64,000 bases of DNA from Raillietiella orientalis (Eukaryota). Below, one piece after another: positions 1 to 60,815 of the stretch (positions are counted from its first letter, which is position 1; each line of letters begins with the position of its first letter). The translations under genes were made by a program, and so were the position numbers. The DNA lies in contig JAYWIR010000005.1 of the NCBI GenBank assembly GCA_036172245.1, forward strand, positions 1,426,001 through 1,490,000, written 5' to 3'. Under the pieces are notes generated by a model that was not told where the DNA came from, did no database searches, and was given only the letters and a program-made list of their open reading frames with translations.

Positions 1-997
1 TGGAGGGCGTCCTCTGAATTCTTTCCAGGATGCCTGTAAGTTCCATCTGAGTTCCCAGGTTCCCAGCTTGCTGCCGTCCTCAGGAAGCGCAGGACGAAGC
101 AGATGGCATCCCTGTCGCGCCGTCTCCCATTCGCGAAGCTCCAGGACGCCACAATCCCACTAGGCAGCAAAGAGCTGCCAGGGATGCGGCAGGCGAAAGG
201 GCATCGCGCACAAAGAGGCGCTTCATCACATCCTTGGGATTGTCATCGGTGCACCAAGGGTCGTTGTGTAACGCAAGCACAGGGGCCGGAGGGCAACACA
301 GTCTACAATCAAATGCGAGAACTGGGATTCCCGGTCCCCTCACCTGTAACACTTGGGCTCCACAGCCCCCCAGGTCCAGTGAGACCGGTGGACGTTTCGG
401 GAGGCCCCAGTGCAACAGCCGAAGTGTTGATTCCTGCCACTTAAGGGAGAGGACCCGATTGTTCTTCAGCTCTGGAGGCCCCTCGAGGTCTTCCTGTGGG
501 GTTCCCAGCAGCTCACCCCAGCGCAATAGTCCTTTCGGTGGGGCACTTGGGGTCTCAGAGTCTGTGAGTTGGTCCATGGGCCAATCATCTAATTCCTCCG
601 TCTGAGGACCTATTTCGCGACTAACTCCCCATTTGACCGGCTGGTTACTGCCCAGGTGCTCTCTGAGGGAGGGCAATGCCGCGGCCAAAGAGGTTCTTTG
701 CGCTCACGCACACGTGGTGGACTGCATGATGACGTCCTGCAGCGAGCTGTTGTCGTAGAAAGAGCGCAGTAGCCGCTGCCCCATCTCCGGTCTCGTTTCG
801 TCGGGTTCTTGGCCCACGTGCGAACTGTTTCCTGCAACCATGCACTACCGTTCGCAGGCCGGCAAAAGATCCAGTTGTTGGTCCTGGGTCAGCTTGGCCA
901 CTCCGGAATTTCAGTCCGCAGCTGGACAAGTCGCGTCTGCGCCGGCGCGCCAAGAACAAAGACAGTCCCGCGTAGCTGGTGGCTCTCTTGACCAGGT
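1..997 (-). mobile_element. Degenerate 3' part (ORF2 C-terminus) of an L1/Tx1-like non-LTR retrotransposon
   Basis: Frameshifted peptides match the ORF2 C-terminus of the full-length copy (LQETVRTWAK, LLRWGELLG, LKWQESTLRLLHWGLP, LFVRDALSPAASLAALCCL). It is interrupted at ~998 by the 3' end of another copy. Confidence 0.85.
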
Positions 998-1802
998 TTT
1001 TCACCCGGATAAGCCGGGCTTTTACTATTAAAATTTTACAATAAAATCTTATAATAAAGTCTGGTTCTTTCGGAAGTTTTTTCAGTCAGAACATAGTTCT
1101 GACTGTCTTGTCGCACTTGTCCATACCGACCCGCAGGCCGGTGAGATCCTCTACACGGGCGAAGAAGGTGGGGAAACCAAAAAAAAAAAAAAACCAAAAA
1201 AACAAATACGCAAGGGGGGACAAAGTTCTAAGGAAAGAGGAGGGAAGGGAAAGGATGACAGTACGCCATGAGGAGGCCTCTGCATCCGGTTTTCGATGCG
1301 GACAAGTACCGGCAGAATTTTTCTTAGCCGGCGCAAACGGAAGCCTTCTCCATATAGATGACCGCCCAGTGAATGGCATTTCGACTACTGCGGCCTCTCC
1401 TTGACGCGGTCCACTTCTCCAGGATTCCGCGTATGCAGCAGAGAGCTGTAACACACGCGGCGGCTGGAGGGGCGTCCCGCATCAGGAGGCGACGCAAAAT
1501 GTTTTTTGGGTCGCCCACCGAAATGTTCACAATCGACGAGAGTCGATTTCACATAAGCGGAGGGCAAAACACTCGATTATTAGGTGGGGGAAGCTCTTCC
1601 TTTCCCCAGACTCTGCACAATTGGCATCCATACTCCCTAATGTCCAGTGGGAGAGGCATCCCACCAAAGAAGACGGCATCCAAAGCCATCCCACTTCCCC
1701 GTGTCCTTCTAGGGAGCGGAGGTGGTTTGGCATTGCTCAGCGGTCTAGTTAGTGCGAAGGTTTTCAGTGGTTTTGTCTGGTGTGTAGGAGAGCCGGTGTC
1801 CC

Positions 1803-3512
1803 ATGGCAGAAATGCCTGAGGACACCGCGATGGAAATTGGGGGAGGAGAGGCGACTTGCTCTCCACCACCTATGAAAGTGGGGGCGTCCGCCCCCACGGA
1901 ATCCGGGGCACTTGCCCCATCGGAATCGGGGGCAGCCTCCCCTTCGCGACCCTCTTCGCCAGCGGCGAGGAGTTGGAGTGCCGTCGTTGCTGCACCATCC
2001 CCGGCTGCAGTAGCGGAGCAGACTGCCTACAAGGACAGCGGCTACAAACCGTCGCTGATCTACAAGGTAGGCAGTGTGTTCGACGAGAAAATTGCACGCT
2101 CCTTTGCTCCACTAAAGACCTCGAGGGCCTCTCCGTCCTTAGTGGGGGGCAGCGAGTTGAGCTGACTTGCAGAGAGGCAAGTCTGGCGCAGCGCCTGCTA
2201 AACACCCCCATTACGGTGGACGGCCGCAGGATCTTCCCCTGTGACGGAGGACCGCTCCATCGTGGTCCACCTCACGGGCGTATCACTCCGAATGGACAAA
2301 ACCAGCGTCCATGAGGAGTTGTCAAAACACAGTAATGTGCACGCGTATTGGGCCAAACCCAATGTCTTCCAAACGTACGGAAGGCTATTCAGTGGGATGG
2401 CCGCTGCCCGCGTCACACTACCGGAGAATGGTGGGTTTCCCCACAAACTAAATATCGGCGAAGAAAAAGTCGATGTTTGGTACGTGGGAAAGCCCAAGTA
2501 TTGGGGCCATTGCGATGCTACAGGGCACTTAAAAAAACGGTGCCCTAACATCCAATGCCACTTATGTGGAAACAAGGGCCACATCCGCAAGGTGTGCCCA
2601 AGACGAGAAATCCCGGTCCCCCCCGCTGCCAAAAAGGCAAAGGGGAAACGGGCGGGAGAGACGAATACCATGAAGCAGGCCGTAAGGAGCCAGATGCCAG
2701 TCCCTAAGCCATCCCAGCAAACGTCGGTTGAGAGCACTCCCGACGACGCTGGCGACGGCGAAGGCTGGCAGACGGTACAGCCCAGAAGAAAGCCCTGGAG
2801 TCCCGAACGAAGCGCGGGGAGAACAAAAACGCAGCGCGAAAAACCGTGCTGCGAAAAACTTCGCGCGTGTTCGGTGAAATTAGAGCGTGTGGAGGCACTC
2901 GATGCCGCCACCGGGGGAGCAATCCCCCCCCTCGCGTCCGCCGAAGCCGCGACGGTCGATGGCGAACCCTCTGGGGAAACAGAGGGGGAACCGCGCGCCG
3001 CGCTCGACGCGATCGAGGAGGCCGCCTTCCAGCAGGCGGTGGAAGAACTCACGGCAGAACTGCAAGGCCGTGAGAAGAACTCCCGGAAAGGCTTACGAAG
3101 GCCGACCGCGAGGAAGGCTCCGGATGCAGGTGAGGCCGAACCGGATGCCGGAAGTGCGTCCTCCTCAACGAAGGCGCCACCAAAGAAGACGGGACGCAAG
3201 TCCCAGAATCCCAGGAGGCGCATACGGATCAAGAAGGAGGAGGATGAACTGGCACCCGAGGGGGAAGCCGGCAGCGTGGGAGGCGAGGGTGGGAATCTCT
3301 CATTTCCCGACACCGTGCAGCTGGCGACCCCCATGGAGGAGGAAGTACAGGTGGGTGAAACCCCCCTTCCTCTGCACGGCCCTGACGAAGACTCGGCCCC
3401 CATGGAGGAAGGAGAAGCGGACCCCCTCCTCCTAGCGTCCCGCCAGACAAGGTGGCGGGAGCCCCATTGCCACTTTCCCAGGATTAACACCTGGGCTCGC
3501 CTGTCGCCGTAG
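1803..3512 (+). pseudogene. ORF1 (gag-like nucleic-acid-binding protein with two zinc knuckles), frameshifted near 2110-2240
   Basis: ATG at 1803, SWSAVV motif, knuckles HCDATGHLKKRC and CHLCGNKGHIRKVC, basic/acidic low-complexity C-terminal half, stop at 3512. Confidence 0.8.
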
Positions 3513-6500
3513 GATCCGCGTAGCCTGCTGGAACGTCAACGGGCTGCGCGACGACGGCAACAGGCGGGATACGGACGACACCCTGCGCGACTTCGACCTG
3601 GCGCTCCTGCAGGAGATCCACGTGATCACCGCGGAGAACGCCCAGGAGATCGAGAGGATCGCAGGGAGTCGTCTGTTTTGGCAATGCGGCGCTCGCAACA
3701 CATGTGGCGTCGCGTTTATTATGAGGTCAGCAGTCGCCGCCTTCGTCAAGGACGTACGCTTCGACAACGACAGTCGGGTTGGCCAGCTCATCCTTGGGTG
3801 GTCCGACTCGATCGACCTTGTCGTGACCAATGTGTACGCTCCGAGCGGAGAATGCGGGTACGGGGAACGTTCCCGGTTCCTCGAAACCCTGAAGCGCGAC
3901 TGGCTGGTGGATACAAACGTACGCAAGGTGCATCTGATCGGTAGGGATTTCAACATCCGCCTGCACTCAGGTGTGCCTTGCGGGCAAAAAGACGCAGCCA
4001 ACGAGTTGTGCGCTGCTATGCGCACGCGCAACTTGTTGGAGGACCTACCGGAAATGGTCCAAAGCGTAGACCACGTCTTCCTTGACGCCGACCTGTGCCC
4101 AAGGGTCGGCAGACGAGGGAAACTTCCGTCGACGCTATCGGACCATTTCCAGTTGATATTCGAGGTTATGCCTCGCGACAAAGGACCACCATCCAGGGCG
4201 TGGCGTCTCCCCAGGGACTGGACGCGCATCTCAGGTGCGGCGGAACATCTCCGCCAAGTACTGGGAGGCGTCATCCTCCGGAATCTCCAAGACTGGGACC
4301 GCATGAAGGCCTCGGTCCGCGAGTTCTGCGAGGAGTTCCCTGTGCACCGCCTGCCCCGGGGATTTGGTGAGGGGGTCCGCAACGAAAGAGCGTATTTGCA
4401 CTCCCGTCGTTTCGCGAGGACCCCTGACATCCGTCGCTTGGCCGAGTACAAAGCCGGGGCCGAGCGTCAAGCCTGGCAAACCGGGCCGCCCAGCGTGCTG
4501 GACGACCTGGACCAGGAATACTCGGACCCGGCATCGATACGTCGCCTCGTGCGTGGATTTTACTCCTCCCTTTACGCCAGGGTACCTGCGGAGTGGGACG
4601 TCTCGCGGCGCTTGCTCCCAGATGTAGCCCCGGCCATAGGGGAGGAGGAGAAAGAAAGCCTCGACGAGCCTTTTACGACCGGTGAAATCATCACCGCGAT
4701 TAAAAGGCTCAAGAGGCGTAAGGCGCCAGGGGAGGACGGCCTGCCGGCGGAGTTCTTTCAGTGCTTCGCTGCAGAGCTGACCCCCCTGGTGCTCCAATTG
4801 ACACGGCTGATCCAAAACGAAGGCGATGTTCCCGCCTCGTTTCGGTCAGCTAGGGTGAGGCTCCTTCCTAAGGGAGGAGACCTCAGAAAATTATGCAACT
4901 GGCGTCCGATCACGATTGTGAACACGGAAGCCAAGTTGCTGGCTGGACTGTGGGCTGCGCGACTGGGGCAGGTAGCTGACAGCTTCGTCAGCCCGGAACA
5001 GACGTACACTGTTCCCGGGCGAAGCATGGAAGCGAACCTGTTCTTCGCCAGCACATGGTTCCATGTGCAACGCGAGGAAAAAAAGGAAAAAGAACGGAAT
5101 GTCGACAAACCTGATTTGGGGGCGCCAGCGCGGCAAGTAAGGGACGACCGGGAAGGGAAGGGGGCTCTAGCGATCGCAGTCGATCTGCACAAAGCGTTCG
5201 ACTGCGTCCACCAGGATCTTGTGGAACTCCTAGAACGCATGGACTTCCCGGCCGCCTTAGAGGCCCACCTGCGCGCCTGCTGGCGCAATGCGATAATCAC
5301 CGTTTCTTTCAGAGGACAAAACGTGTTTGGCGTGAAGGTAAGGCGCGGCATCCGGTAGGGCGACAGCCTGAGTCCCCTGCTCTTTAGCACCTGTTTCGAA
5401 CTGGTGCTGAGAGCATACAGGGTGACATTGACTGCCCTGCCGAGCTCGTGCCCAGGTACGGCGGCCGTGTCGGCGTTTGTTGACGATCTTCTGCTCCTGC
5501 TTCTCATGTCCGCGCCGGCTTCGGCATTCGAAGATTTCTTCGACTTGCTGAGCCGTGGGACAGGACTACGGGTGAACAGGACGAAGTCGTCGCTGGTAGC
5601 GGTTGGTGCAACGTGGTCAGGACGACCTGATTGGATCCGCCTGGGGATCCCCACGGATAGGTACTTGAAGTACCTCAGCGTTCCGTTGGGGTACTTCTGC
5701 CAGTCAGAAGCCTGGTCAGGTCGTCTCCAGAAAGTGGAGTCGGCGATCGCCCGTTCCTGGAAGGCAAGTTTCACTTGCCGGAACGGGCCGTGGTGTGGAA
5801 CGCGTTTGCGGCTTCCCTCCTTCGCCCCCTGATTTTTGTTTGCCCCGTACCCCGTGAGATCAAAAAGAGAACGAAGAACCTCCTGCGCATCGCCCTGTGG
5901 GGCGGCGGGAGGCCTCGTGTGCCTCTGGAGGATTTGTGCGCTCCACGTCGGGACGGAGGTCTTAGCGTCCTGACGCTGGAGCGCGTGGAAATACAGCTGC
6001 AGTGGCGTACCTTGGCCATCGCGGCGAAGATGTGGAGCACCCCTTGGTGCGTTCCGCCCACCTCCTCGTCAGGTGTGTGTCCGGGACCGAAGGACTCGCA
6101 TCTTTTCTTCTGTGCCCCGGCTGGAAAATAAGAAGATGAGGCCTTCTCCTGGGACGCATGACCACCCTGGCAAAGGAGAACAGGTGGATGGCCTGCAGCC
6201 CCGCCAACTCCAGCGCATGGCTGGAAGAAACAGTTGGCACGTGGGCGAAGTTAAACCAGCCTAGTGGAGAATCCTGCAACCGCCTGCGTCCCGGCATCTA
6301 CACCCGCTGCACGCTGCGGAACATGATCGAGTGTCCCGCCAGAAGCACTTGGGCGGAGACGGCCCCACTGGCCACAGCGCTGCCCTTCCTACGAAAGGCG
6401 CTTCAAAATAGCCGGAAGCCGAGATGGCAAGTCTCCTGCCGGATAGTGGGCAAGGAGAAGGATCTAAGCGGGTGGACAATGAGGGAACTGGCAGACGCCG

Positions 6501-7072
6501 CAACCCCAAGCGTTCACCCTCATGGAATACGGAGATGGGGCGAGCTGCTTGGCATCCCGGCGGATAACCTAGAGTGGCCCCCGTTATTTAGAGACGCATC
6601 CACCCTCCCCCTCAAGTGGCAGGAAACGGCGCTGTTGTTGTTGCACTGGGGTCTTCCCTGCAACGCGCGCCGCCACCACTGGACGTTCGGGAACGTGGGA
6701 CAGAACTGTGCAGTGTGCGGGGAGAAGGAATCCCTCCCCCATCTGTTAGTGGACTGCGCTGCCCTCCGGCCCTTGTGAGAACGTTATGCTACGACCCTCC
6801 CTATGCCGGTCGGCAGTACCCCCAGAGACGTTCTGAGACTCCTCTTCGTGCGAGACGCCCTGCCACCAGCCTCAACCCTGGCAGCGCTCTGCTGCCTCCG
6901 AGGGATTGTGGCCGCGTGGAGCGCAGCCAACAGAGGAAGCAGCGATAGGGACCCCATCGTACACGCGGGTCGCTACCTGCGAATCGCGATCGGCTGGTCC
7001 CATCTGGGAGCTATGACGAGGGACCTCGAGGGCATCCTGGAAAGGATGGTCTCTTCCTCTAGCGGGTTGTGA
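3436..7072 (+). pseudogene. ORF2: AP-endonuclease + reverse transcriptase + C-terminal CCHC finger, with nonsense and frameshift lesions
   Basis: APE motifs CWNVNGL, LLQEIH, NVYAP, DFN, DHVF, SDH. RT motifs KAPGEDGLPAEFF, NWRPITIVN, AVDLHKAFD, GIR*GDSLSPLLF (TAG 5356-5358), FVDD, PRRDGGL. Finger CAVCGEKESLPHLLVDC. Confidence 0.92.
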
Positions 7073-9214
7073 TCCCTTCCCGGCCCCCCAAATAGTTTGT
7101 TTTTGTTATTTCATTTATTCTTCTTTTTGTTTTACCCCCCCCCCCCCACCCCCTCTCGCTGCCGAGGAGAGTCAAGCCGGTCTGCGAACCAGCTTCCTGG
7201 CAGGTCCCGGGAACTATTGGTCGTAGCGGGGCCTAGTACCGCAGATGTACTGTGTTTTTTTTAATAAACGCCCCGGCGTGACCGGGTGAAAACTCCCTAA
7301 TGTCCAGTGGGAGAGGCGTGCTCTGCAAAGGAGTCCCCAATGCAACACGAGCAGCGCCGTCTCCTCCCAATCCAAAGGGAGGGTACCATTGTCCCAATGC
7401 GTTGGGGACCACTTCGCCTCCTCCGGAGGTATATCGAGCAGCTCGCCCCAGAGCACAAGTCCATTAGGTGGGATACTCGGGGTTGCAGCGTTCTCTAGTT
7501 CCCGAGACGTCCACGCCTTTAAGAGTTTTTTCCTGCCTCTGATGAGGCAGAACACTTCCCACTATGCTTCCTCTTGGCTGTCCCTAGCGTCTCTCAGGGA
7601 AGACAGCACGGTACAAGGGGGGTGAATGAAGCCCACAGAAGTTTCCTTGGGTTGGAAACGATCTCTCGCAGGGACTGGCCAGCGTACCTGCCTCAACGAA
7701 GGCAGGAGTGGTCTTCATCGCTGGAGCCGTTGATTTTGCCCATGAGGAAACGGACTCCTGAAGGCAGATGGTCCAGTTCTCGGGGACGCCGGAGATCGAC
7801 GTATTTTAACTCACCAGGGCAACCAATTCCCGTAGCTGAAACCCACAATGGTTCAGACTGCGGTCGTTAGCCACTAGGATCGAGGTCAATCCGTAGCAGC
7901 CGCTTACCCTATAGGCGAGGAGTCGTGTGGGTGCACACCATGGCACAGTCCAGTATTTCGCCACAAGAGCGATTTTGCGTATTTGGAGCTGACGCTCCAT
8001 GCGCTCCAACGTCATGAGACAAAGTCCACCGTCCCCGCGTGGACCCCCCAAAAAAGGGGGGCGGAAGAGTGGGACTACCAACGTGTTCCACACCGCGGCC
8101 CGTTCCAGCAAGAGAAACTTGCCATCCTGGAACGGGCCGATCTCCGACTCTGGAAGCAGCTCGACCACCCCTCCGCCGAATAGTCTCCAAACGGAACATC
8201 AAAGTCCTTAAAGTACCGAACCATGGGGATCCCCAAGAGTATCCATTCCAGCTTCCGTATGCACACCGGATGGACTGCTACCACGGACGATTTCGCCCTG
8301 TTCACCTCCAGTCCTGTCGCACGGCTTAATAGTTCGAAGAAATCTTCGAGTGCCGACGCCGGGATGGACATAAGGAGCAGCAGCAGAAGATTGTCCGCAT
8401 ACGCTGACACGGACGGTGTGCCTGAGCACGCGCATGGCAGGCGAGCCAGAGTCGTCCCGTACGCCCACAGCACCAGCTCGAAGTAGGTGCTGAAGGGTAA
8501 GGGGCTCAGGCTGTTGCTCTGCCGTATCCCGCGGCGCACCGGCACACCGTAAACATTTTGTCCCCTGAAAAAAATGCCGTCGCTCCAGCAGGAGAGCAGA
8601 AAGGCGGTCAAAGAGGCTGAGAAGCCCGTGCGTTTCAGGAGATCCAGAAAAAGCCCCTGGTCGGCGCAGCGGATGCTTTGCGCAAGCTGACTGCGACCGC
8701 AAGGTCCTCCATTCCCTCCCAACCATCCCGTCTACTACTGGCGAAAGTTCCGGAATTCGGGGTGCCAACTGTGTTCCTTTCATTCATTCTTACTCTCTAA
8801 AACTGAAACCAGGTGTTCGAGAGGAACAGGTTGGAATCCATACTTCGGGATACACACTGCTTGGTGTGTCCCCCGAAGAACTCGCGTTCCCTCTCCTTTA
8901 TGTGGACACCTCCATGTTTCGTCTCGAGTGGAAACAGGATGCTCTGCTGTTTCTGCACTGAGGATTCCATTCAATCAGCGCAGACTCCTGGCTCTCGGAG
9001 GAGCTGCCTCTCCGAAATGTTGGAGGTGCAGAGCGATAGGATCGCTCCCGCACCTCCTGTTGGACCGCAGTGCCCTCAGGGATCTGTGAGGGAGACTCGC
9101 TCCGCCACTCCGACAACCGCAGGACACCACTTTGGACCAGCTGCAACGCTTCTTCATCTGAAGAAGGGCGATGCGAAGAAGGGCGCTGCGATCGCATTCG
9201 CGCCATGGTGGCAC

Positions 9215-9512
9215 GTTCTGGAGTCAGGTTCGCGGCGAAGAGAGGTCACCAGCATGGCAGCAGAAGCCCTCATGAGGACGGCAGCAAGGTGGCTTCATCT
9301 GCCAGAAGTCCCCAGGGAGATCGCCACTATCCACAGCCTCTTCTAGAAGGAGAGGAGCGCCTTTAACCAAAGACCTCACCCTCCCGTCTTTTTTTAAATT
9401 TATTTATTGTTCCCTCCCTCCGTTTCCAACTTTGTGGTAGCCGACCTGCGTGCCGGTGGTTCCCTGTGGTTTTTTTTTTTTTTTAATAAACGTCCCAGTG
9501 CCACCGGTAAAA
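9215..9512 (+). mobile_element. Short 5'-truncated Tx1-like 3' end
   Basis: AARWLHL C-terminal peptide, T-rich UTR, CCTGCG motif, AATAAA at 9485-9490 followed by a degenerate terminal hairpin. Confidence 0.7.
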
Positions 9513-9789: not shown

Positions 9790-11006
9790 CTTGACCTGTG
9801 TGGGAGCCGGAAAGCTGTGCGCCAGCCGAAAGTTTCAGGCCTTTCTCGTCCGGCAAGCATGGCGCCCCGAGTGGCCAGAACTGCCGCTCGGCCTTGACCT
9901 TGAACTCAGCCAGTTTGCTCAAACCCGGGCTTCTGAAGTGGTGGGACCGCGTTTGTTCCTGGCACCCTCCACGAAACCTTCCTGTCCTGCCTGCGATCCA
10001 GAAACTGCTCTCGCTGCTCGCTGCAGAACATCCTGGAGAGTCTCGGCATGAGCGTGTGGCGGAGCAAGACCCCTTTTGTTGCATCGATGCCCTCCCTCAG
10101 GGAGGCGAGTGGCATCAGCAGCCAATTGGTGAGGTGAGACGTCTCCTGCGAGATTGCAGGCAGGAGGAAGAGAATGAGTGGCCGGACCACGGGCAGCTGA
10201 CGTACGCTGCGATTCCAGGCGCCCTTCCACGAAGAATTCAACGCTGGGGTGGGCTGCTCGGTATTCTACGGGAAGATCTGAAGTGTGTGCGTGCGGACAG
10301 AAGCACCCCCTCCCCTTGAAGTGATAGGCGGGCCAGCACTTGTGCTTCTGCCCTAGGGTCTTCCCTGAAACGCCTCCCGAGACCGCTGGACGCTGGAGGG
10401 TGCAAGTCCGGAATGCTGCGGGCGCGGGGAACGGGAATCCCTCCTCCGCACCTGCTCGTGGACTGTGCCGCCCTACGGCCCCTATGGGAGCTCTTTGGCA
10501 CGACACTGCGGGCTCTGGGTGGCAACTGCAGGGACATTTTACCACGCTCCTCTTTGTGCGGGATGCCCCGCGGCCAGCCGCGGTCCCAGCAGCCCCTTGC
10601 TGCACCCGCGGGATGGTGGTGGCCTGGAGCGAGCTGAAGCGGAGCGAACAAAAGGGCTTTCAGTTCGCTTTCCATGGATGGGGGCAGCCAGAAGCCCCCC
10701 TACCTGGATGCCATGCAGACGGACCTAGCCGGCATCCTAGTAAGGAGGCAGAGGACTCCTCCCTACAGTGGATGGTGATTCCTTGCTGGCTCTTCAGAGG
10801 ATTTTTATTTATTTATTTATTTATTTTTAGGGGTGGGTTTCTTCCTCTCTTCGCCGCTACCGAGGTGAGACGCACCGGTCTCAGTACCGGCGACGCGGCA
10901 GGTTTCTTGTAGGTTCGGACATGGCTTGACTGCGTGTCCTGCCGCAGGTTGCAGGTTTATTGTTCTCCAAAAAAAAAAAAGAAAACGCCCCAGCGTGACC
11001 GGGTGG
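9790..11006 (+). mobile_element. 5'-truncated Tx1-like copy (ORF2 C-terminus and 3'UTR)
   Basis: RWGGLLGI, PHLLVDCAALRPLWELFGTTL, LLFVRDAP peptides; terminal CGCCCCAGCGTGACCGGGTG at 10986-11005. Confidence 0.85.
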
Positions 11007-14953: not shown

Positions 14954-15651
14954 TGAACCCTTTGAGTGCTAGGGACGCATCTATGCGTTTTTACCTTACA
15001 CTCGCGACATGAGTTAAGATCACCATCCATGTCTGAGATGGACGCATACATTTTCGTTCTTACGATTCCCTTGGCAACGACAGTAAGCAAAATTCTACTC
15101 ATATAGGCTAGCTGTCCTCGGTTTTTCTCGGTGTCTGTAGATACTGTTTTCTATCTTTGTGATACCTGAAAAAGTGGTGCCGTATATTATTTATTATATT
15201 GTTTTTTATCTTTGTGATTTCTTAAAAATGTCGAATAATTTTGAAGAGATTTCATTACGACCTCCTGTTGTACATGCTTGTCCTGCTTTGGGGCTATTGG
15301 GCTACAAAATTTCTAACATTCAACAAGAGATCGTAAAAATTCAACAAACGATGACAAGCACAAAATAACACAATAGGAATACAAATAACAAACAGTAATT
15401 ACAATACAAACAATCAGAACAATAATCACAAATTTACAATGCATGGTTATCACACACTTTTTGCAAGTTTTTAAACAGGCACAATACAATAAATACAATG
15501 CTAAAAGCACGAGAGTGTTATGAGTACACAGATAGGGGAAATGGGCAGATGGGTTCACAGGGAAGTTCATCTGGAACGTGAAAGCCTTCGGCAATGGACT
15601 GATTGTTCATGCCTTCCTGTGCAGTGAGCGTGCCCGTGCCTGAGGTGTTTG

Positions 15652-18600
15652 GCATCCGGGTGCGCCGGGGAGTTCATTTTAATAAGCAAGCAAACATGTG
15701 TAGGGCCCTCGGCCCTACAGCGTCCGAAAGAGTTCGGAACTTGCCGAGTAATTTCCACCCGGTTAATCCCGGGGCGTTTATTAAAAAACATTCTACATAC
15801 GTGGTACCAGGCCCCAACGCCGGACCTGCCGGGACGCAGCCCGACGTGGCTCTCCTCAGCAGTGGAAGGGATGGGGGAGAAAACAAAAAGAAAAATAAAA
15901 AGTAATGAAAACAAAAAGAAGTTGGAGGGCTGGGAAGGGATCACTGTGCACTGTGAGGAGGGCCCATCCTGCGAAGGAAGCCCTTTAAGTCCATTCGAAT
16001 TGTACCCAGCTGGGGCCATCCAGTAGCTCTGGTCAGGAAGCGAACAGCATACGGGATGACGTCCCTCTCGTTCTGGTCCACATCTTCGTCGGAGGCATCA
16101 CTCCACGCCTCCACAATGCCTCGGATGCAGCATAATGCTGCCACGGCTGCGGCTGGCTGCAGGACGTCCCGCACGAAGAGAAGTCGGAAAACGTCTCTGG
16201 GCGCGCTGCCCGTAGGGAGCCCTAGGGTCGTCCCAAACAGTTCCCACAGGGGTCGGAGGGCAGCACAGTCAACAAGAAGGTGGGGGAGCGATTCCCGCTC
16301 CCCACGCCGGGCACATTCAGGATTTACTCTCCCCCGGGTCCAGTGGAAGCAGCATGCATTGCAGGGTAGACCCCAATGCAACGTCAGCAGCGCCGACTCT
16401 TGCCACTTGAGGGGGAGAATCCTGGATCCAATTAAAACCGGAGGCTACTTCAGGTCATCCGTCGGGATGCCGAGCAGCTCGCCCCATCTTGCAAGTCCTC
16501 GCGGGAGGGCACTCGGGGTCGTGGCATCCGCCAGTTCTCCCGTGGTCCAGCCGTTTAACATCTCTCTGCCTGAGATCCGGCAGGAGACTTGCCACTTCGG
16601 CGTCCGGCCGCTGGTGAGAGCCCTCCGTAGAAGAAGCAGCGCCGTAGCTAAAGGGGTGGTCTCCGCCCACGTGCTTCTGGCGGGACAAATCAAAGTGGCC
16701 CGCAGAGTGCAGCAGGCGTTACTGCCGAATCGCAGGCGGTTCCAGTTTTCTTCTCTGGTGTTGTTCAACTTCGCCCACGTTCCAACGGTTTCCTCCAGCC
16801 AGGCGGAGGAGTTGGCGGGGCTGCATACTATCCAACCGTTCTCTCTCACCAGGGATTCCATGCGTCCGAGGAGAAGGCCGCATCTTCTAACCTTCCGGCC
16901 GCGGCACAGAAGATAGGACGCGAGCCCTTGCGTCCTGGAAACACGGCTGGCAAGGAGGCGGGCCGGAACGCACCAAGGGGTGCTCCACAACTTCGCTGCG
17001 ATGGCCAGGGTGCGCCATCGCAGCTGGATCTCCAAGCGCTCCAGCGTCAGGAGGCCAAGACCGCCGTCCCGACGAGGAGCGCATATGTCTTTCAGCTTTA
17101 CTCGGGGCCTTCCGTTGCTCCAAAGGGCAATACGGAGGAGGCCCTTGGTCCGCTTTTTCAACAGGGTATGGACGGGGCAAACAAAAAGCAGGGGTCGTAG
17201 GATGGGAGCCGCGAATGCGTTCCAAACCGCGGCCCGTTCCGGCAGAAGGAACTTGCCTTCCAGGAACGGGCCGATAGCCAGCTCTACCTTTTGGAGACGA
17301 CCTGACCAGGCTTCTGTTAAGCAGAAGTCCCCCAATGGAATACCCAGGTACTTCAGGTACCTGGCCGTGGGGATCCCCAAGCGGATCCAGTCAGGCCGTC
17401 CGACCCACGTCGCACCAACCGTTACCACCGACGACTTCGCCTTGTTAACCCGCAGTCCTGTCCCGCGGCTTAGCAGATCGAAGAAATCCTCGACTGCGGC
17501 TGCCGGGGCGGACATCGGCAGAAGATCGTCGGCGTATGCTGCTACAGCGGGCTTGCCGGGGCACGAGCTCGGCAAGGCAGCCAACGTCACCCTGTACGCT
17601 CTCAGCACCATCTCGAAATAGGTGCTAAAGAGCAGGGGACTGAGGCTATCGCCCTGCCGTATGCCCCGCCGCACCGGCACGCCGTACGCTATGATTCCAC
17701 TGAAATAAACATTGATCAGCGCGCTGCACCAGCATGAGCGCAGGTAGGAGAGAAGGGAGGGTGGGAAGCCCATGCGACCCAGGAGCTCCTGGTCAACGCA
17801 GTCGAACGCCTTGTGGAGATCGACCGCGATCCCTAGGGCCCCCTTCCCCGCCCGGGTTTCCATTCCCAGCCCAGCTGGCGCCCCCAAGGTGGGGTTGCCA
17901 ATCATTCGCCCATTCTCATTTAAACACCGCTGCACATGAAACCATGTGCTCGCGAAGAAGAGGTTGGCATCCATACTTCGCCCGGGAACAGCGTATGTCT
18001 GCTCCGGGCTAATTATGGAATTTGCCACCTGCCCCAAACGCGAAGTCCACAGCCCGGCAACCAACTTGGCGTCCGTGTTCACAATAGTGACCGGACGCCA
18101 GTTGTTTAATTTCCTGAGGTCTCCTCCTTTCGGAAGGAGCTTCACCCTGGCTGACCGAAAAGAGGCGGGAACATGGCCTTCGTCTTGCCGAGTAACCGGC
18201 ACGCAGGCCGGCGGGGTTCGGCTCGGCAGTGGAGGGGGAGGGGGCAAACAAAAAGAAAAAGAAAAGAAAAACGCAATTTACAAAAATAGGGAGGTCCGGG
18301 GAAGGGATCACGTTCCACTGCAGGCCGTCCTCTACATCCTTTCCAGGATGCGGGCAAGTTCCATCCGGATGCGTCCCAGATGGGGCCATCTGGCTGCCGT
18401 CCTCAGGAAGCCCAGGGTGGAGCAGATGGCGTTCTTATCGTGCTGCCCACCAGTGGCGTTGCTCCAGGCTGCCACAATCCCACGTAGACAGCAAAAGGCT
18501 GCAAGGGCTGCGGCAGGCGAAAGGCCATTGCGCACAAAGAGGCGCTTGAACATGTCTCTGGGAGCGTTCGCAGGTACACCTAGGGCCATTGCAAAACGCA

Positions 18601-20499: not shown

Positions 20500-22470
20500 G
20501 TACGCACATGCCTCCTATGGTTGATTACCCGGTTAACTTCCTATGGTGGGCTTCGCTGAAAGTTTGTCGGCTGTGCGGGCGATTGCCGGAGGCGCCGTGG
20601 TATTCAAACCACTCGAACTTGCTTCCATGTAGTCGTGCGATTCCCGCACGGTCGACGACTTCGTGCATTCCTAGCCGCAGTGCCTCTGCTCTGAGGCCAA
20701 ACAACGACCTTTGTGCCCCCGAGGAATTCTGGAGGCTGTATTGGGCGCTCTGTCATCCGGAGTACACCTCCGCGGACCTGCTGCGGCGTTTCTTCGCGCG
20801 TGACGGACTCTCGGACGGCGCTGTGATGGCAGCGAGGTGTTGCATCCGCCATCGTCATAGCCCGCGGAGCTTCGAGCTCAGAGAAGGGAGGCCTCTCGCA
20901 CGGCAGTTTCCTTGATGAGGACAGCTGTCAGGTGACCTCACCTCCAAGAAGTCTTCAGAAAGTGCTGCAGACTCTCGGTCCGTTCCAAGGAGGCAGATTT
21001 TACCTGCCGGAACCACGGTGTGGTACACGTTCGTGGCATTCTCTGCCCCCTGCTTTTTCTTTGCCCCCCACCGAGTAGCATTAAAAGGCGGACGAAAGAC
21101 CTGAGAATTGTATTGTGGGGCAAAGGAAGGCTCTGAGTCTGCCTAAAGGACTTGTGTGCTCCGCGTGGCGACGGCGACCTAGGCCTACTGATGCTCGAGC
21201 GAATGGAGCTGCAGCTCCAGTTTCGAACACTTGCCTTCCTGGCAAACCTCTGGAGCATCACCTGGTGTCAATCTGTCCTCTCCTCCAGCAAGCCACCGGC
21301 AGCGTGGGACTCCTGTCCTTCCTTGCGCGCCGTCCACGCAGCCTCATCCACTGCGGACTGCACCTTCGGCAGGTGACCATGGCGACGAGGAAAAACGGTT
21401 GGATCTCTTACCGTCCCGCGAACGGTGGTGCTTGGTTGCAGGATACCGTTCGCATGTGGGAGAGAATCCAGGAGCCAAGCGCGGAACAGGGGCGACGTTT
21501 CCTGTACGCGCGCAACAACTGCACGCTCCGGGAAATCCTGGCAGATCCCGTGAAGAGTGCATGGACAAGCAGAACCTCGCTCGCCGTCACGCTGCCCTAA
21601 TTTAGGGAAACATGGGCAGCAAACTCGCGGCAAAATGGGCCGAAATCCCCGGTAGGAGAAAGAAACTAGGCGATTGGACGACAGGTCAGCTAAAGGACAG
21701 TGCGAACTCGAGTGGTCCCCCTCGAGGCTACTGCGTTGGAGCGAGCTACTGGGTCTTCCAGTGGAAGGTCTGCAGTGTTTATAAACATCCGTACCCTCTT
21801 CTTGAAGTGGCAGAAGTTGGCGTTGATGCTGCTGCACCGGGACCTCCCGTGAAGCGCCCGCCGGCATCATTGGACGCAGGGGGAGGGGTGAACCTAAACT
21901 GTGCAAGGGGTGAACAGGGAGAGGAAAGCCCTCCCGCGCCTCCTAGTGGACCGTGTTGTCCTCCGGCCCCTTGGGTGACACTTTGTCTCAACCCTTGGTA
22001 ACCCCCGCAGCAACTTCAGAGACGTTGTAAGACTCCTCTTTGTGAGGGACGCCCTGCAGCCAACACTGTGTTGTCTCAGAGGGATCGTGGCGGCGTGGAG
22101 AGAGGTCAACAGAGGAGCGAAAAACAAGGACGCCATCCACTTGACTCTCCGCTTTTTGCGGGAAGCGGTCAGATGGCTCCACCTGGATAATAACATGAAA
22201 CAAGACCTTGCCGGCATCCTCTAAAGGATGCAGAGGATCCCCCCAGCAGGCTGTGATGCCTTCCCGTAACCCCCCAAAATTGTTTTATTTTTGTTTTTCT
22301 TTGTGTTCGTCCCTTCCTCTCTGCTGCCTTTTTGATCCTCACCTGTCTGCGGACCAGTAACACGGCAGGGTATCTACAGAAAGTACGTGGTTGGACCAAT
22401 GGTCCATCTACAAAAAACTGTAAATATTTATTTTAGTTTGAAATAAACGCCCTGGAGAACCCTAATGAAA
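20500..22470 (+). mobile_element. Degenerate Tx1-like copies (divergent C-terminal piece ~20500-20915 and a 3' half ~20940-22470)
   Basis: FFARDGLSDGAVMAARCCIR; CAPRGDGDLGLLMLERMELQLQFRTLA; CCLRGIVAAW. 3'UTR motif at 22324-22368 and AATAAA at 22442-22447. Confidence 0.8.
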
Positions 22471-32994: not shown

Positions 32995-34315
32995 CGCCCG
33001 GTTGCACCGGGGTGTTTATGTATAGAAAAAATAAACATAGGAGTCAGTATCACACCAGTAAAATACACATATCGGTTAGAACCAAGCGTCTTGCCACGTT
33101 ACAAATGTAACCATGGGGACCTGCCGAGAACCGGAACGCAGGTCGGCGGGTTTCGTCTCGGCAGCAAAGGGGGAGGAGAAACAACAAAAAAAGCAAAAAT
33201 AAAAATACGAAAAATTGAAAGGGTTCGGAAAGGGATCACCGGATGCTGGAGGGAGCCCTCTGCATCCCTGCAAGGATGCCGGCAAGTTCCTGTTTCAAGG
33301 CTTCCGGGTGGAGCCATCTCGTTGCCTTGCCATCCTCGTGAAGCGGACGGCTAAGTGGATGTGGTACCCCTGTCTCTCGGTTCTCCTGTTGCGTCGTTCC
33401 AGGCAGCGGCAATCCTTCGTAGGCATCAGAGGACTACTGGAGAGCTGCAGGGCGAAGTGCATCGCGAACGAGGAGGAGACTTAAAGGGTCCCTGGGGTTT
33501 CCGCTGAGGGTTCCTAGGGTCGCGACGAAGCGTTCCCAGAGGGGCCGGAGGGCAACACAGCCCACTAGCAGGTGCGCGAGCTGGGATTCCTGATCCCCAC
33601 ACCTGGCACAGTTCGGGTTCGGTGATGCCTGCGGGCGTTGCACGAGAGGCCCCAGGGCAGCAGCACCAGCGGCGCCGACTCCTGTCACTCTGAGGGGCGT
33701 GTGGGTGTTCAAAAGCACTGGGGAAGGGCGGGTGGAGGTGGATCGACGTCCACCACGGACGAAATACAGCGCTGCCGGACGCGAGCGGCAGAGGGCACCA
33801 TGGTTTCACCAGGTGCTTCCGACGTCCCTGAGGGGCGTGGTTGAGGTTTCGAGTTGGGCTGGGCTGAGCTGTCCGTCAGGAGGTCCTTGAGCCGCCTACA
33901 CTCCAGCCGGGTTTCGTACCGCGTTCCTTAAATAGGGAGGTATCCATAGAAACGGGGCCACAAGAGTTCTATTCTCCTGCATACCGTCTCGAAGTTAGGG
34001 GGCAGCCCGTAGGGGTCACCCCATGAATCCATGAAGGCTCCGGAGGAGGAAAGGAGTCCGTTCCTCGTTACTCTTGGTAGGGCACCCCAGAGGGAACCAA
34101 CTCTTCCTTATTCTTTCCGCAGAAATCCCCCTGAAAGCATGTGCTCCTGATCCCCTCCTTCGAAGGAAACCCCGAAGGGAGCAGCGCTTTTCTCACACTC
34201 TGGAGAGGCAGCCCTCGATGGGGGTATCAACCAGCTGACTGAAACGCGATCTCTTCTCCCCCCCGAGGGGGAGGGCAGTTCCATCTTCACTACTGGAGGG
34301 GAACCCCGAAGGGCT
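32995..34315 (-). mobile_element. Headless copy of the composite SINE-like element (body plus Tx1-derived 3' tail)
   Basis: Body repeat ~34315-33950 joined to the Tx1 C-terminus (CARCGDQESQLAHLLVGC), 3'UTR motif at 33121-33164, terminal hairpin at 32995-33020. Confidence 0.75.
33398..34119. repeat. 722-bp exact duplication, copy 1 (copy 2 at 59745-60466)
   Basis: Four ORFs translate identically at a constant offset of 26347, and I saw no mismatch reading the two tracts. Confidence 0.9.
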
Positions 34316-55779: not shown

Positions 55780-57016
55780 CAGAGACTTTTCAGAGACTTT
55801 CCCTTCGGGGTTTCCCTCCCAAGCGTAAGAGGAACGAACTCCTTCCTCCGAAGCCTTCCTGGATTTATAGTGTGGTCCCCACGGTGCTTCCTCCCTACCT
55901 GAAGAGTAGCACGCACGCTGGGGTGGCGTGAGCAGTTTCGAAAGAGTTTCGTGAACTCACTCCGAGAAGAGGCAAGAGGTTCTTCAGTACTTGGCAGCCC
56001 CCTAAAAAAAAAACCTAAAAAAGAAAAAGAAAAAAAAGAGAAACAAACAGAAGAACCCGAAAGGGTTTTCATCATCTTCGCCACCCCTTTTGCCCCAGTG
56101 CCGCCCTCCCTGAGGGACATAAGGGACAGCGCGATCCTGGCAAGTGGGAAGCGACGTGCTACATAGCAGCAAAGAAAAAACTTTTGGGGCGTGGACGACT
56201 CTGGAAGTGACGGATGCTTTGACCCCGAGTGTGAGGTCCCACCCCACGGACCTCTACGCTGGGGAGAGCTGCTCGGCATCCCTCCGGAGGAGGGGAATCG
56301 GACCTCAGAACCAGTTAGAAAGCGAACCTGTTAGAAAGCGACACCCTCCTCATCAAGTGGCGGGGGTTGGCGTTGCTCGTGGTGCATGGGGGAATCCCAC
56401 GCAAAACGCGCCTTCACCAGTGGACACGGAAAGAAGCAGTGAGCGCTCAGAGTGTGGCAGGTGCGGGGAGAGGGAGACCCTCCCGCTCCTATTGTTGGAC
56501 CGTGCTGCCCTCCGACCCCTTTGGTATCACCTCGCGACGATCCTAGGTATCCCAGTAGGCGGTCCCACAAGCATTTTGGGACGTCTCTTCGCGCGTGGTT
56601 GCGCACTGCTGCCAGCCGCTTCCCCCACAGTTCTCTGCTGTTTCCGCGTCAGCCTGGAGCGCCAGAAGAAGAGGCCGAAATGACAGGGACGCGATCCACT
56701 GGGCACAGATCTTCCTGAGGACCCCTCGAGATGGCCCCACCCAGGCGCTATACAGACGGAACTTGCCGGTATCTTGAACATGATGCAAAGGACGCCTGGC
56801 AGCGTACCATGATCCCTTCCTCGGTCTCCTTTCCCTCACCGTGTACGAATTCCTCTCCCCTATTTTGTGTGTTTATTTATTTTTTGCTTTTGTTTTCCCC
56901 TCCCCCGCTCTGCCGAAGTGGACCGCGCTGGTCTGCGCACCGCTCTTCGGCAGATTCCTTGAACACCAATGCACTTTTATTACGTTGCGTAATAAATGCC
57001 CCTGCAGAACCGGGGG
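55780..57016 (+). mobile_element. Composite SINE-like copy (3' body plus Tx1 3' tail)
   Basis: Body 55780-56010, then CGRCGERETLPLLLLD, UTR motif at 56909-56954, AATAAA at 56991-56996 and the terminal hairpin. Confidence 0.75.
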
Positions 57017-58211
57017 ATGATCATCCAAGGTCAATAGCAGCGATCTCCCTTTGAGGTTGCTGCTGGCCTGTAAAAAAAGAAAAAAATTCCGAAACACTCC
57101 GCCGTTAGCACGCTGCATCAAAAGAGTGGATTCTGGAGATTCCTACTTGACATCCTCCTCCCTTCCACCCCCCCCCCCCCGCCTGCCTCCTTTTTCCTTT
57201 TTTTCCCCTTCTTTCTCCGCACCAAGATTTCCGATTCCCACAGCAGCCATGTTCTCCAAGATGAAAAATGGGGAGTATAAACGTCAGTTCAATACACGTC
57301 GTTGGATGATGAAGAGCACTGGAGCGGCTGACTCTTGTAGGAGCTCGGTCCATGAAATATTCATGATTTTATGTTAAACGGTCATAAAGACCTCCCACCG
57401 GCGGTGCGTTCCGGGAAGCCCGAACCCCGGAGTGGCAGCTGGTTCCTGTCGAGAGGGGCGATTCCCATCTCCTGTACCCTTGGCAACGAAAGTCCTTTCT
57501 TCTTTAGCGAACCGCAGCCCACGATCGGTAGCGGTGTTCCGTCACCTTGCTGATGATCGACCTCCGCGTTGGTCGGGCGTTTTTCTCCAGCGCTGCGCTT
57601 CCGCGTCGGGTCACCTGCCGCGCTGCACACGCTGTTCGGGTCACGCAGCCAGGTTGGAGCGGTCTCCTTGGGTCCGTCCAAGGTCACGCTCAAGGATTAG
57701 CAAGGCGCTTTGCTCGCTTCGGAACATCCGGCCGGATTTCCGGGGACGCTGCCTCTGACGTCAGCTCGGTGCGCGGGAATGACGCTGCCTCCTAGAGGCG
57801 GAGCCTTCCGAACTTCAGGCTCGAAGACCTCTGGAGACTGCACCAAGACATATCCTGGATATGCCAGATGTCCTGCATCTCACCTCTTCAAAATGCCTTT
57901 CTTTTGGGTCAGCTTTCAGGTCGCCATCTTGCGGCCCGAGTCGCCCGAGGACTGTCCTCCGAAAGGACCAGTCGTGAAAGGGGTCCTCGAAGAGGACTGC
58001 AGTCTGCCTGCGACACAGCAGAGGGCACCCAGCTTCGTCGTCCTTGACAGCGACCGAGGAGGCCACTTCGATCCACTTCCCATCCCGCGGTCCCCTAGAT
58101 CGAATGGCATCCTGATTCCCTCGACGGCATCCTGACCTCCTCCCTCAAGGTCAGCTCCCTCCCTGGTGCCTCTCCCGCAGCGAAAACGCTGCCCTCCGTC
58201 GAGGTCATCCA

Positions 58212-59200: not shown

Positions 59201-59310
59201 TCAGAGGCAGCTCAAGAACGTTCCCGCGGGCTCTCAGCCCAGCCAGCCAACCCTATAGCTGCGGGGCAGCGCCGGAAGCGATTCGTCGACCGAGCAGTGG
59301 CCGGATTATA

Positions 59311-60815
59311 GCCGGATGCTCCGGGGCGTTCATCTCGTATGAAAAATGAACACTGGTAGTCGCTGTGGCTGGACCGGTGCTCCAACCACATCTTTTTCAG
59401 ATCAAAACTGCCGCTTTACCGGCGCGCAGACGAGTGAGGTCCGCAACGGCAGCGGGGGGAAAGGGGGAGCAAGCAGAAAGAAAAGAAAACGAAAATAAAA
59501 ATAAATACATAAATTTATGGGGAAGGGAGAGGGTGCAAGAAGGGATTACGTCCTGCTGAGGACGCTCCTCTGCATCCTTATGAGGGTGCCGGCAAGCTCT
59601 TGTTGGATGCTATTGTCCAGGCGGGATCATCTCGTTGCCATCCTCGTGAAGCGGTCGAATAAGTGGATGTGGTGTCTGTCTGTCGGAGTCTGGCTAACGA
59701 AGTGGGTGTGGAGTCCTTGTTTCTCGATCCTCCTGTTGCGTCGCTCCAGGCAGCGGCAATCCTTCGTAGGCATCAGAGGACTACTGGAGAGCTGCAGGGC
59801 GAAGTGCATCGCGAACGAGGAGGAGACTTAAAGGGTCCCTGGGGTTTCCGCTGAGGGTTCCTAGGGTCGCGACGAAGCGTTCCCAGAGGGGCCGGAGGGC
59901 AACACAGCCCACTAGCAGGTGCGCGAGCTGGGATTCCTGATCCCCACACCTGGCACAGTTCGGGTTCGGTGATGCCTGCGGGCGTTGCACGAGAGGCCCC
60001 AGGGCAGCAGCACCAGCGGCGCCGACTCCTGTCACTCTGAGGGGCGTGTGGGTGTTCAAAAGCACTGGGGAAGGGCGGGTGGAGGTGGATCGACGTCCAC
60101 CACGGACGAAATACAGCGCTGCCGGACGCGAGCGGCAGAGGGCACCATGGTTTCACCAGGTGCTTCCGACGTCCCTGAGGGGCGTGGTTGAGGTTTCGAG
60201 TTGGGCTGGGCTGAGCTGTCCGTCAGGAGGTCCTTGAGCCGCCTACACTCCAGCCGGGTTTCGTACCGCGTTCCTTAAATAGGGAGGTATCCATAGAAAC
60301 GGGGCCACAAGAGTTCTATTCTCCTGCATACCGTCTCGAAGTTAGGGGGCAGCCCGTAGGGGTCACCCCATGAATCCATGAAGGCTCCGGAGGAGGAAAG
60401 GAGTCCGTTCCTCGTTACTCTTGGTAGGGCACCCCAGAGGGAACCAACTCTTCCTTATTCTTTCCGGAGGGGTTCTCTGGTTTGCGGGGTCCACTGGTGT
60501 CTTCTACGGAGGGATCTCTTTGTAAGGATGTGTTCTTGGTACCCTTCTTCGAAAGAAATCCCGAAGGACTCCTTGAGCAGTCCTGAAAGGACCTCGGAGG
60601 GTCAACTTCTAGTCCCGGATAGCCAACGGGAGCATCCGGCCTCCGCCAATGCCGCTACACCCGAATGGACCAATTAGAGCCATCCTGTAGGGAGGACACT
60701 TAAAATGCATGATACCACCCCCTTATTCTCGACGTAGACCCTTCTCCGGGCCGGATTCGAACCCGCGATGCCCGGTAGACCCGCGGAGGTTGCCAACGCG
60801 GGGTGCCTTAGGAAT
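59311..60815 (-). mobile_element. Most complete composite SINE-like element: tRNA-like head, body and Tx1-derived 3' tail (~1.5 kb)
   Basis: Perfect B-box GGTTCGAATCC (60753-60763, minus) preceded by CTAAGGCAC. Body 60640-60300, Tx1 C-terminus, UTR motif at 59408-59452, terminal hairpin at 59311-59332. Confidence 0.72.
59745..60466. repeat. 722-bp exact duplication, copy 2 (copy 1 at 33398-34119)
   Basis: Same sequence and same orientation as 33398-34119. Confidence 0.9.

Follow-up and report, generated by a model that had tools for sequence, protein, structure and literature searches.

A conserved hairpin in the 3' untranslated regions of an L1-like retrotransposon family of Raillietiella orientalis, and its possible role in template recognition

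The locus and its resident element

The stretch analyzed here – 64,000 nucleotides of contig JAYWIR010000005.1 from Raillietiella orientalis (positions 1,426,001 to 1,490,000 of the forward strand; hereafter the window) – is crowded with diverged copies (~66-75% nucleotide identity) of one retrotransposon lacking long terminal repeats, a long interspersed nuclear element (LINE). Our subject is a stem-loop, SL1, in the 3' untranslated regions (3'UTRs) of these copies, to which an earlier note made from the sequence had drawn attention. The window is 56% G+C, with observed/expected ratios of 0.89 for CpG and 0.52 for TpA: across its whole length TpA is strongly depleted and CpG is undepleted. 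This composition, taken with the AATAAA signals of the element, speaks against a vertebrate host that methylates its transposable elements heavily; AATAAA usage likewise speaks against a green alga.

Searching the window (tblastn) with the C-terminus of the second open reading frame (ORF2) gave 20 high-scoring segment pairs, which resolve into 11 decayed copies. One of the 11 is split by the insertion of another (copy A); for a different one the 3'UTR falls outside, past the start of the window, so that the 3'UTR lies inside the window for 10 of 11 copies. Copy A is nearly full-length (coordinates here and below are positions in the window):

1658..7292, + strand: copy A, near full-length element, flanked by a 25-bp target-site duplication (1633-1657 and 7293-7317)
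2202-3509, + strand: first open reading frame (ORF1) of copy A, with a CCHC knuckle
3436-7069, + strand: ORF2 of copy A, with endonuclease, reverse transcriptase and zf-RVT; the frame is interrupted by stops and frameshifts

The knuckle in ORF1 has the canonical form C-X2-C-X4-H-X4-C (Pfam zf-CCHC, E 0.0032, under the gathering score). ORF2 matches an apurinic-type Exo_endo_phos domain (E 1.9e-7), RVT_1 (E 1.7e-16) and, at its C-terminus, weakly and under the Pfam gathering score, zf-RVT (E 6.6e-4). Endonuclease, reverse transcriptase and zf-RVT in ORF2, together with a separate ORF1, constitute the domain layout of the L1 clade. For the best-preserved reverse transcriptase (RT) in the window (16448-18277, - strand) the top solved-structure matches are to human LINE-1 ORF2p (E 6e-17 to 4e-16), compared with E 1e-9 or weaker for R2 proteins; Protein Atlas matches to the element fall in eukaryotic RT clusters of mixed phyla. 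Domains and closest structure matches thereby support the designation L1-like.

SL1 occurs in every 3'UTR of the window

SL1 is present in 10 of 10 in-window 3'UTRs, always in the sense orientation of ORF2; six copies are complete and four damaged. Each of the ten sites named in the earlier note was found, when checked in the sequence, to contain the motif:

7159..7203, + strand: copy A, complete; lower stem CUGCC(G)AGGA/UCCU-GGCAG, loop CUGCGA
33121..33164, - strand: copy B, complete; 9-bp lower stem CUGCCGAGA/UCUCGGCAG
18185..18229, - strand: copy C, complete; the minimum free energy (MFE) structure equals the consensus fold; the 3' arm is the target of the 15752-18183 insertion
56909..56954, + strand: copy D, complete; 10-bp lower stem UCUGCCGAAG/CUUCGGCAGA
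59408..59452, - strand: copy E, complete; lower stem CUGCCGUU/AGCGGCAG with one U.G
22324..22368, + strand: copy F; lower stem intact only in the basal 5 bp
10857..10901, + strand: copy p10880, damaged; CUACCG, loop CUCAG
15826..15862, - strand: copy p15839, damaged; 8-nt deletion in the 3' half, upper hairpin GGG-CUGCGU-CCC retained
9423..9467, + strand: copy p9446, damaged; upper hairpin and loop present, lower stem lost
1115..1159, - strand: copy p1136, damaged; upper hairpin and loop present, lower stem lost

The motif sits at a fixed place: in the seven copies whose ORF2 stop was located it lies 67-97 nt past the stop. Its sequence core is also strongly over-represented in the window. The string CTGCGNNCCRG occurs 11 times against 1.83 expected, and seven of these are the 3'UTR motif, the other four being chance matches elsewhere (6284+, 9991+, 13608- and 32008-), while the longer pattern CTGCC-N17-YCTGCG-NN-CCRG-N4-12-GGCAG occurs four times against 0.01 expected. 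A covariance model built from the ten sites scores those ten at 43-62.5 bits and its next best site in the window at 15.2 bits (E 0.19); because the ten matches are the training set, the informative part of this result is the lack of further sites.

For comparison of the copies the loop was used as anchor: the 5' half then aligns gap-free and the 3' half takes one indel. The refined fold consists of a lower stem of 8-9 bp (CUGCCG.../...CGGCAG), an asymmetric internal loop (8 nt on the 5' side, 1 nt on the 3' side) and a 6-bp upper stem capped by the hexaloop CUGCGN; in copy A the upper stem is GCCGGU/AACCAGC, with one C.A mismatch. RNAalifold, given all ten copies, returns the 6-bp upper hairpin with columns 30 and 37 as its closing pair, and given the seven copies with a lower stem (omitting p15839, which carries the deletion, and the stemless p9446 and p1136) recovers both helices. 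The same fold thus recurs across otherwise divergent 3'UTRs, as had been proposed. The loop had been described as YCTGCGNN: its CUGCG core is indeed conserved, but the Y and the second N pair with one another and leave the hexaloop CUGCGN.

The loop is the best-kept part of SL1 – C31, U32 and G35 are invariant, G33 and C34 are present in 9 of 10 copies – and within the internal loop G18 and C22 are likewise kept in 9 of 10. A near-invariant loop is as expected for a sequence-specific protein contact. Mean pairwise identity (value for shuffled sequences in brackets) is 0.62 (0.50) for SL1, 0.60 (0.50) for the last 120 nt of ORF2, 0.63 (0.54) for the pyrimidine tract between ORF2 and SL1, and 0.65 (0.475) for the terminal ~30 nt of the element; for the stretch immediately after SL1 it is 0.405, against 0.396 when shuffled. 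SL1 is kept like coding sequence while the adjoining downstream UTR is unalignable: it is an island of conservation. Conservation relative to the flanking UTR had been set beforehand as a possible refutation of the motif, and the outcome (0.62 vs 0.405 downstream) is in the motif's favor.

Covariation in the stems

Five pairs carry whatever information there is on covariation. In the upper stem, pair 30-37 is UA in four copies, CG in three, GC in one and UG in one, with one mismatch, and pair 25-42 (paired in 9 of 10 copies) is GC in two, GU in four and AU in three. In the distal part of the lower stem, pair 14-46 is AU in five copies, UG in two and UA in one; pair 15-45 is GC in four, AU in one and UA in one; and pair 16-44 is found as AU, GC, UA, GU (twice) and UG, one gap having been moved. 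Arranged by tail lineage, the distal lower stem reads GAG/CUC, GAAG/CUUC or GUU/AGC. The basal lower stem CUGCC/GGCAG and the CCGG arms, being conserved palindromes, are uninformative on covariation. The proposal that the outer arms change together accordingly applies to the three distal pairs, which do vary, and not to the basal CUGCC/GGCAG, which is merely conserved.

The fold was compared with 500 shuffles of the alignment (the number of shuffles given after each result). In the fold as first proposed, 75.4% of cells pair vs 71.0% in shuffles (16/500). In the refined fold, 76.4% of cells pair vs 70.1% (0/500), the covariation score is 0.286 vs 0.221 (26/500), and 12 cells are changed on both sides vs 7.5 (25/500); slid partners pair in 24-45%. 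Permutations place 115 of 150 cells in pairs where 104.8 are expected (p ~0.002-0.004) and, for the three distal lower-stem pairs, 20 of 30 where 13.5 are expected (p ~0.006-0.011). These shuffles ignore relatedness and, with ten related sequences, overstate significance. A ranking of all 530 pairs of variable columns uses the same alignment and so keeps relatedness: in this ranking pair 30-37 is first, 25-42 eighth, 14-46 thirteenth, 16-44 fortieth and 15-45 fifty-eighth. Decay of CpG was considered as a cause of the mismatches and dropped, given the CpG ratio of 0.89.

The covariation is genuine, in that some pairs do change on both sides, but the signal is thin, coming from ten related sequences and with some measures (below) not significant. 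The SL1 fold is probably real and under selection; the case is suggestive, not proven.

Searches for known motifs and relatives

SL1 had been put forward as unlike any described motif, and in Rfam, whose families include self-cleaving ribozymes, IRE, SECIS and R2 elements, the whole window gives no match at gathering score. Relaxing the threshold to E up to 10 for two of the 3'UTRs produced noise only (best E 0.51; fragments of long non-coding RNAs and a CRISPR repeat). Three specific identities were considered and rejected: a self-cleaving ribozyme (no Rfam match, self-cleavage being without support), an element resembling an iron-responsive element (no Rfam match) and a precursor microRNA (45 nt is too short, and again there is no Rfam match). 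Among the open-access papers listed (in one listing, 10 of 19 matches), none has a title or abstract on a CUGCG-loop hairpin in a LINE 3'UTR.

Proteins of the element were also used as probes. One protein alignment gave 138 pattern matches in metagenome contigs, 34 in genome contigs and 30 in viral contigs, with no relative confirmed in any of the three sets. The RT alignment gave 595 pattern matches in viral contigs, none confirmed, and two distant matches of 22-31% identity; the contigs in question, 1.0 and 1.6 kb long, bear the label of bacterial metagenome-assembled genomes. A protein search returned only one close relative, P0001, at 65% identity on a 2.9-kb contig. The motif pattern itself matched 8 viral and 69 metagenome loci. 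None of the 8 viral loci has the LINE context (a pyrimidine tract upstream, AATAAA downstream); among the 69 metagenome loci the top upstream pyrimidine share is 0.63, and none of the best 25 has AATAAA within 160 nt downstream.

Organization of the remainder of the tail

All copies share one order of parts: ORF2 stop, pyrimidine tract, SL1, an unalignable stretch, an AATAAA-like signal, a terminal hairpin (SL2) and the element end. The stretch between SL1 and the AATAAA-like signal is 17-100 nt long and cannot be aligned between lineages. SL2 has the form CCCGG-N5/6-CCGGG; it follows AATAAA(C)G, is itself followed by UGAAAA, and lies 3-4 nt before the element end. Its stem has at least 4 bp in 7 of 10 copies, one mismatch in two and is degenerate in one. 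SL2 has a fixed stem and a free loop – the reverse of SL1. The parts located are:

7070..7158, + strand: copy A stop and tract; TGA in the context TGATCCCTTCC, then a T-rich followed by a C-rich tract up to SL1
7263..7292, + strand: copy A terminal module; AATAAACG, SL2 CCCGG-cgtga-CCGGG, UGAAAA end (set by the target-site duplication)
15752..15782, - strand: copy p15839 terminal module; AATAAACG, SL2 CCCGG-gattaa-CCGGG, UGGAAA end (set by the target-site duplication)
32995..33019, - strand: copy B terminal module; SL2 CCCGG-tgcaa-CCGGG
56991..57020, + strand: copy D terminal module; SL2 variant CCCCUG-cagaac-CGGGGG
997..1026, - strand: copy p1136 terminal module; SL2 GCCCGG-cttat-CCGGGU, GAAAAA end
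59306-59334 and 15648-15680, both - strand: further SL2 sites
56976-56996, + strand: copy D poly(A)-signal hairpin; UUUAUUACG-uug-CGUAAUAAA

The stop context TGATCCCTTCC is near-invariant in 7 of 10 copies, the coding sequence upstream of it being only ~60% identical.

Where the end of a copy is fixed by target-site duplications it is precise and very short in A: copy A ends ...CCGGGUGAAAA (4 A) and copy p15839 ends ...CCGGGUGGAAA (3 A). Three more copies end G(A)4-5, and a long poly(A) at the element end is found in 0 of 10 copies. The end lies 24 nt past the AATAAA hexamer, a distance at which eukaryotic cleavage and polyadenylation are expected; since the end coincides with the expected cleavage site, reverse transcription appears to begin right where the poly(A) tail does.

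The unalignable stretch is itself structured in several copies. In C, E, F, p1136 and D it holds perfect or near-perfect hairpins of 9-11 bp whose sequences are unlike one another, each matched by at most 5% of mononucleotide shuffles. Two perfect examples are UGUAGGGCC-gag-GGCCCUACA in copy C (~15690-15720, - strand) and CAGUCAGAAC-uau-GUUCUGACUG in copy p1136 (~1075-1105, - strand), of 9-10 bp and unrelated in sequence. These variable hairpins are perhaps a third structural module, in which shape and not sequence is kept. Copies D, F, E and B have their AAUAAA-like signal inside the 3' arm of a hairpin of 7-11 bp, a U-rich stretch upstream supplying the partner; in the A-lineage copies a plain T run precedes AATAAA in place of the hairpin. 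A poly(A)-signal hairpin is also placed at the equivalent site in copy p1136.

Enclosure of the AAUAAA-like signal in D, F, E and B suggests regulated polyadenylation, and this is in keeping with a rival reading in which SL1 would act through host factors in RNA metabolism – 3'-end processing, stability, export or localization – perhaps in concert with the poly(A)-signal hairpins. SL1 lies 17-100 nt upstream of the poly(A) signal and is not terminal, and conservation with covariation would fit any function at the level of RNA. However, no known host-factor motif matches SL1 (Rfam being empty for the two copies scanned, even at E up to 10), a loop that stays constant across unalignable UTR lineages fits an element-specific partner at least as well, and the short, precise A tails point to specific initiation. 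We regard a host-factor role as unlikely, while giving it more credit than the other alternatives discussed below.

One further observation concerns the mobility of tails as units. Copies B (33353-34122) and E (59700-60469) share 770 bp of ORF2 at 98.7% identity; over the last ~100 nt of ORF2 and the 3'UTR the two are only ~73% identical or unalignable, and their SL1 lower stems differ. This mosaic suggests exchange of tail modules or gene conversion.

Interpretation of SL1

The explanation we prefer, tentatively and by analogy with known LINE tails, is that SL1 is a selectively maintained hairpin of the sense-strand 3'UTR that would act in cis as the recognition element of a stringent-type LINE tail. 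A conserved structured RNA, precise ends and a fixed loop on a variable stem make the tail look like that of a stringent LINE: a stem-loop is kept above the level of the surrounding UTR with compensatory changes, and the 3' ends are precise and free of long poly(A). According to this proposal, the CUGCGN hexaloop on its 6-bp stem and the asymmetric internal loop (with G18 and C22) would form a surface for a protein encoded by the element, the likeliest binder being ORF2p – a role suggested by analogy and position. A transcript so bound would be singled out, as the element's own, to be the template of target-primed reverse transcription. SL1 would work inside a modular tail of pyrimidine tract, SL1, variable hairpins, poly(A) signal and SL2, with SL2, 3-4 nt from the end, probably fixing the initiation of reverse transcription at the poly(A) junction. 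The observation in the earlier note is confirmed, and its interpretation – ORF2 recognition or another functional RNA – is partly supported.

A number of findings weigh against the recognition-element proposal. The sample is ten related, decayed copies from one 64-kb window. Pair 30-37, the best of the 530, was adopted only after RNAalifold had proposed it. For the fold as first proposed the covariation score is not significant (140/500), and for the refined fold neither the count of pairs nor that of pair types is significant (306/500 and 275/500), these two being, of the five measures, the most robust to relatedness. Stability is ordinary: z-scores on the sense strand range from -4.3 to +0.8 with a mean of ~-0.9, and the antisense mean is ~-1.15. 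Thermodynamic stability was accordingly dropped as evidence, the z-scores being ordinary and equal on both strands. Of the ten MFE structures, six hold the lower stem and only four the consensus upper hairpin, and those of copies D and E favor a different inner pairing; the SL1 of copy D is the stablest of all (z -4.3), yet its MFE takes this other pairing. The strand is undecided from wobble pairs, 16 G.U vs 11 A.C giving 115 of 150 paired cells in sense and 110 of 150 in antisense. SL1 ends 45-125 nt from the 3' end of the element, and it is SL2 that occupies the position of the recognition hairpin of L2-type stringent LINEs. Beyond the window, metagenome, genome and viral contigs supplied no relative with usable DNA, nor did the covariance model show a short interspersed nuclear element (SINE) or other non-autonomous element sharing the tail in the 64-kb window.

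A null explanation draws on the statistical points among these. SL1 would then have no function: it would be an inherited palindrome of a GC-rich UTR, its apparent covariation a product of relatedness, choice of alignment and lucky columns. The basal stem and CCGG arms are plain conserved palindromes, z-scores are ordinary, GC-rich sequence folds well by chance, two of five measures on the refined fold fail along with the covariation score of the earlier one, and the shuffles overstate significance. Yet mere inheritance would not readily account for a downstream UTR that has fallen to shuffled-level identity while SL1 is kept like coding sequence, nor for three pairs that rank 1, 8 and 13 of 530 with relatedness kept, nor for a distal lower stem that reads GAG/CUC, GAAG/CUUC and GUU/AGC in separate tail lineages. 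Absence of function is, on this evidence, improbable.

Antisense folds equal to sense folds in stability raise a different question: whether SL1 acts as DNA or on the antisense strand, for example by binding a protein, promoting antisense transcription, folding in the first-strand cDNA or serving as a preferred target of insertion. Two insertions with defined target-site duplications bear on the last of these:

15752..18183, - strand: copy p15839, 5'-truncated, with a 12-bp target-site duplication (15740-15751 and 18184-18195)
1658..7292, + strand: copy A (above), nested in antisense in ORF2 of the p1136 copy, with its 25-bp duplication

Copy p15839 is inserted precisely in the 3' arm of copy C's SL1, the rest of the copy C 3'UTR resuming after 15740. 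The second insertion, by contrast, lies in unrelated ORF2 sequence; the two targets are unrelated, and there is no sign of Tx1-style site-specific insertion, a weak negative with only two insertions of defined duplication. Wobble pairs favor the sense strand only slightly (115 vs 110 of 150 cells), and the GC/GU/AU series of pair 25-42 likewise favors sense: its G.U pairs, present in 4 of 10 copies, would read as C.A mismatches in antisense. That SL1 acts as DNA or in antisense is very improbable indeed.

If SL1 is instead a recognition element for a protein of the retrotransposon, the ORF1 product (ORF1p) is a candidate besides ORF2p. Retroviral-type CCHC knuckles, as in nucleocapsid proteins, bind exposed G in hairpin loops; copy A ORF1 has a canonical knuckle, and the CUGCGN loop exposes two G. 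SL1 might by this analogy be a site for ORF1p binding or packaging. The case is one of analogy only, the Pfam zf-CCHC match is below threshold, and ORF1p of L1-type elements generally binds RNA without sequence specificity, which counts against it. We consider an ORF1p site rather improbable, and retain recognition by ORF2p as the preferred reading of SL1.

Comparison with known LINE tails

The earlier note started from the general view that L1-clade elements need only poly(A). This premise is too broad: L1-clade LINEs with a conserved 3' hairpin exist (PMC3472496), so that the kind of hairpin is already described for some of them, and what is new here is the sequence family of a tail hairpin in an L1-like, apparently non-plant element. 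Ohshima (2012; PMC3472496) described a monocot L1 lineage (the LINE1-1_ZM group) whose 3' hairpin is conserved, shows compensatory changes, keeps certain loop bases fixed and recurs in SINEs, and a tail shared by L1-1_CR and SINEX-3_CR of Chlamydomonas, arguing that stringent recognition is possibly ancestral in plant L1. SL1 resembles these tails in being a 3'UTR island with a compensatory stem and fixed loop bases, and in lending itself to the stringent-recognition reading. It differs in the loop (UCU with a CGAG flank in monocot L1, CUGCGN in SL1) and in position, the monocot hairpin falling in the final 45 nt and SL1 at 45-125 nt from the end, with the terminal place taken by a second hairpin. 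Partner SINEs are known for those elements and none is seen in the window; their ends are poly(A), as opposed to 3-5 A here.

The mechanistic model adopted above comes from the L2 clade. In zebrafish L2 elements (ZfL2-1/ZfL2-2), ORF2p binds a tail hairpin that is required for retrotransposition (Hayashi et al. 2014; PMC4176376). What both systems have in common is a short hairpin in the 3' tail of a LINE; the L2 elements belong to another clade, carry the hairpin right before short terminal repeats and have binding established by experiment.

Eel UnaL2 is another stringent L2-clade LINE with a 3' stem-loop. SART1 reportedly has essential motifs away from the 3' end, so that a terminal position would not be strictly defining.

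According to Grechishnikova & Poptsova (2016; PMC5135761), the consensus stem-loop of stringent LINEs has a loop of 5-7 nt and a bulge 4-6 bp from the loop. SL1, with its 6-nt loop and an interruption 6 bp below, fits this consensus. The same authors propose a 3'UTR stem-loop of human L1/Alu as an RT handle in an L1-clade element, as we do for SL1; there it is a positional prediction without covariation, and human L1 differs from the present element, with its pyrimidine tract and 3-5 A, in having a long poly(A) and a G-rich tract. In L1 of frog, lizard and fish the 3'UTRs are reported to contain poly-T and poly-C tracts (Boissinot & Sookdeo 2016; PMC5381506). The present tail is like these in its T-rich then C-rich tract after the ORF2 stop and in AATAAA near the end. 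It is unlike them in that a poly(A) tail is given for all species and stem-loops are mentioned, in the sections consulted, for the intergenic spacer and not the 3'UTR.

Other features of the window

Between ~35000 and ~55000 the window is G+C-rich (up to 66%) and has many long open frames on both strands. This stretch has no Pfam match (79 frames of at least 157 aa scanned across the window).

Significance

How a LINE chooses its template is well understood only for a few elements of L2, R1 and R2 type, and poly(A) dependence is the usual assumption for the L1 clade. With its covarying hairpin of fixed loop and its ends of 3-5 A, this L1-like family would join the few stringent L1 lineages as a non-plant case, and SL1 would offer a compact and testable pair of RNA and recognizing protein. 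For annotation, SL1 and SL2 are good markers of the 3' ends of this family and of any non-autonomous partners that hijack them. The widest version of the proposal – an L1-clade LINE outside green plants whose tail of several hairpins (SL1, variable hairpins, SL2) serves stringent, sequence-specific recognition of the template, and whose cDNA synthesis is initiated exactly at the poly(A) junction – goes further than the case for SL1 itself and is correspondingly more doubtful. If true, it would define a new protein-binding RNA motif with a tail module exchangeable between subfamilies (compare the B/E mosaic), and it would support stringent recognition as ancestral in the L1 clade.

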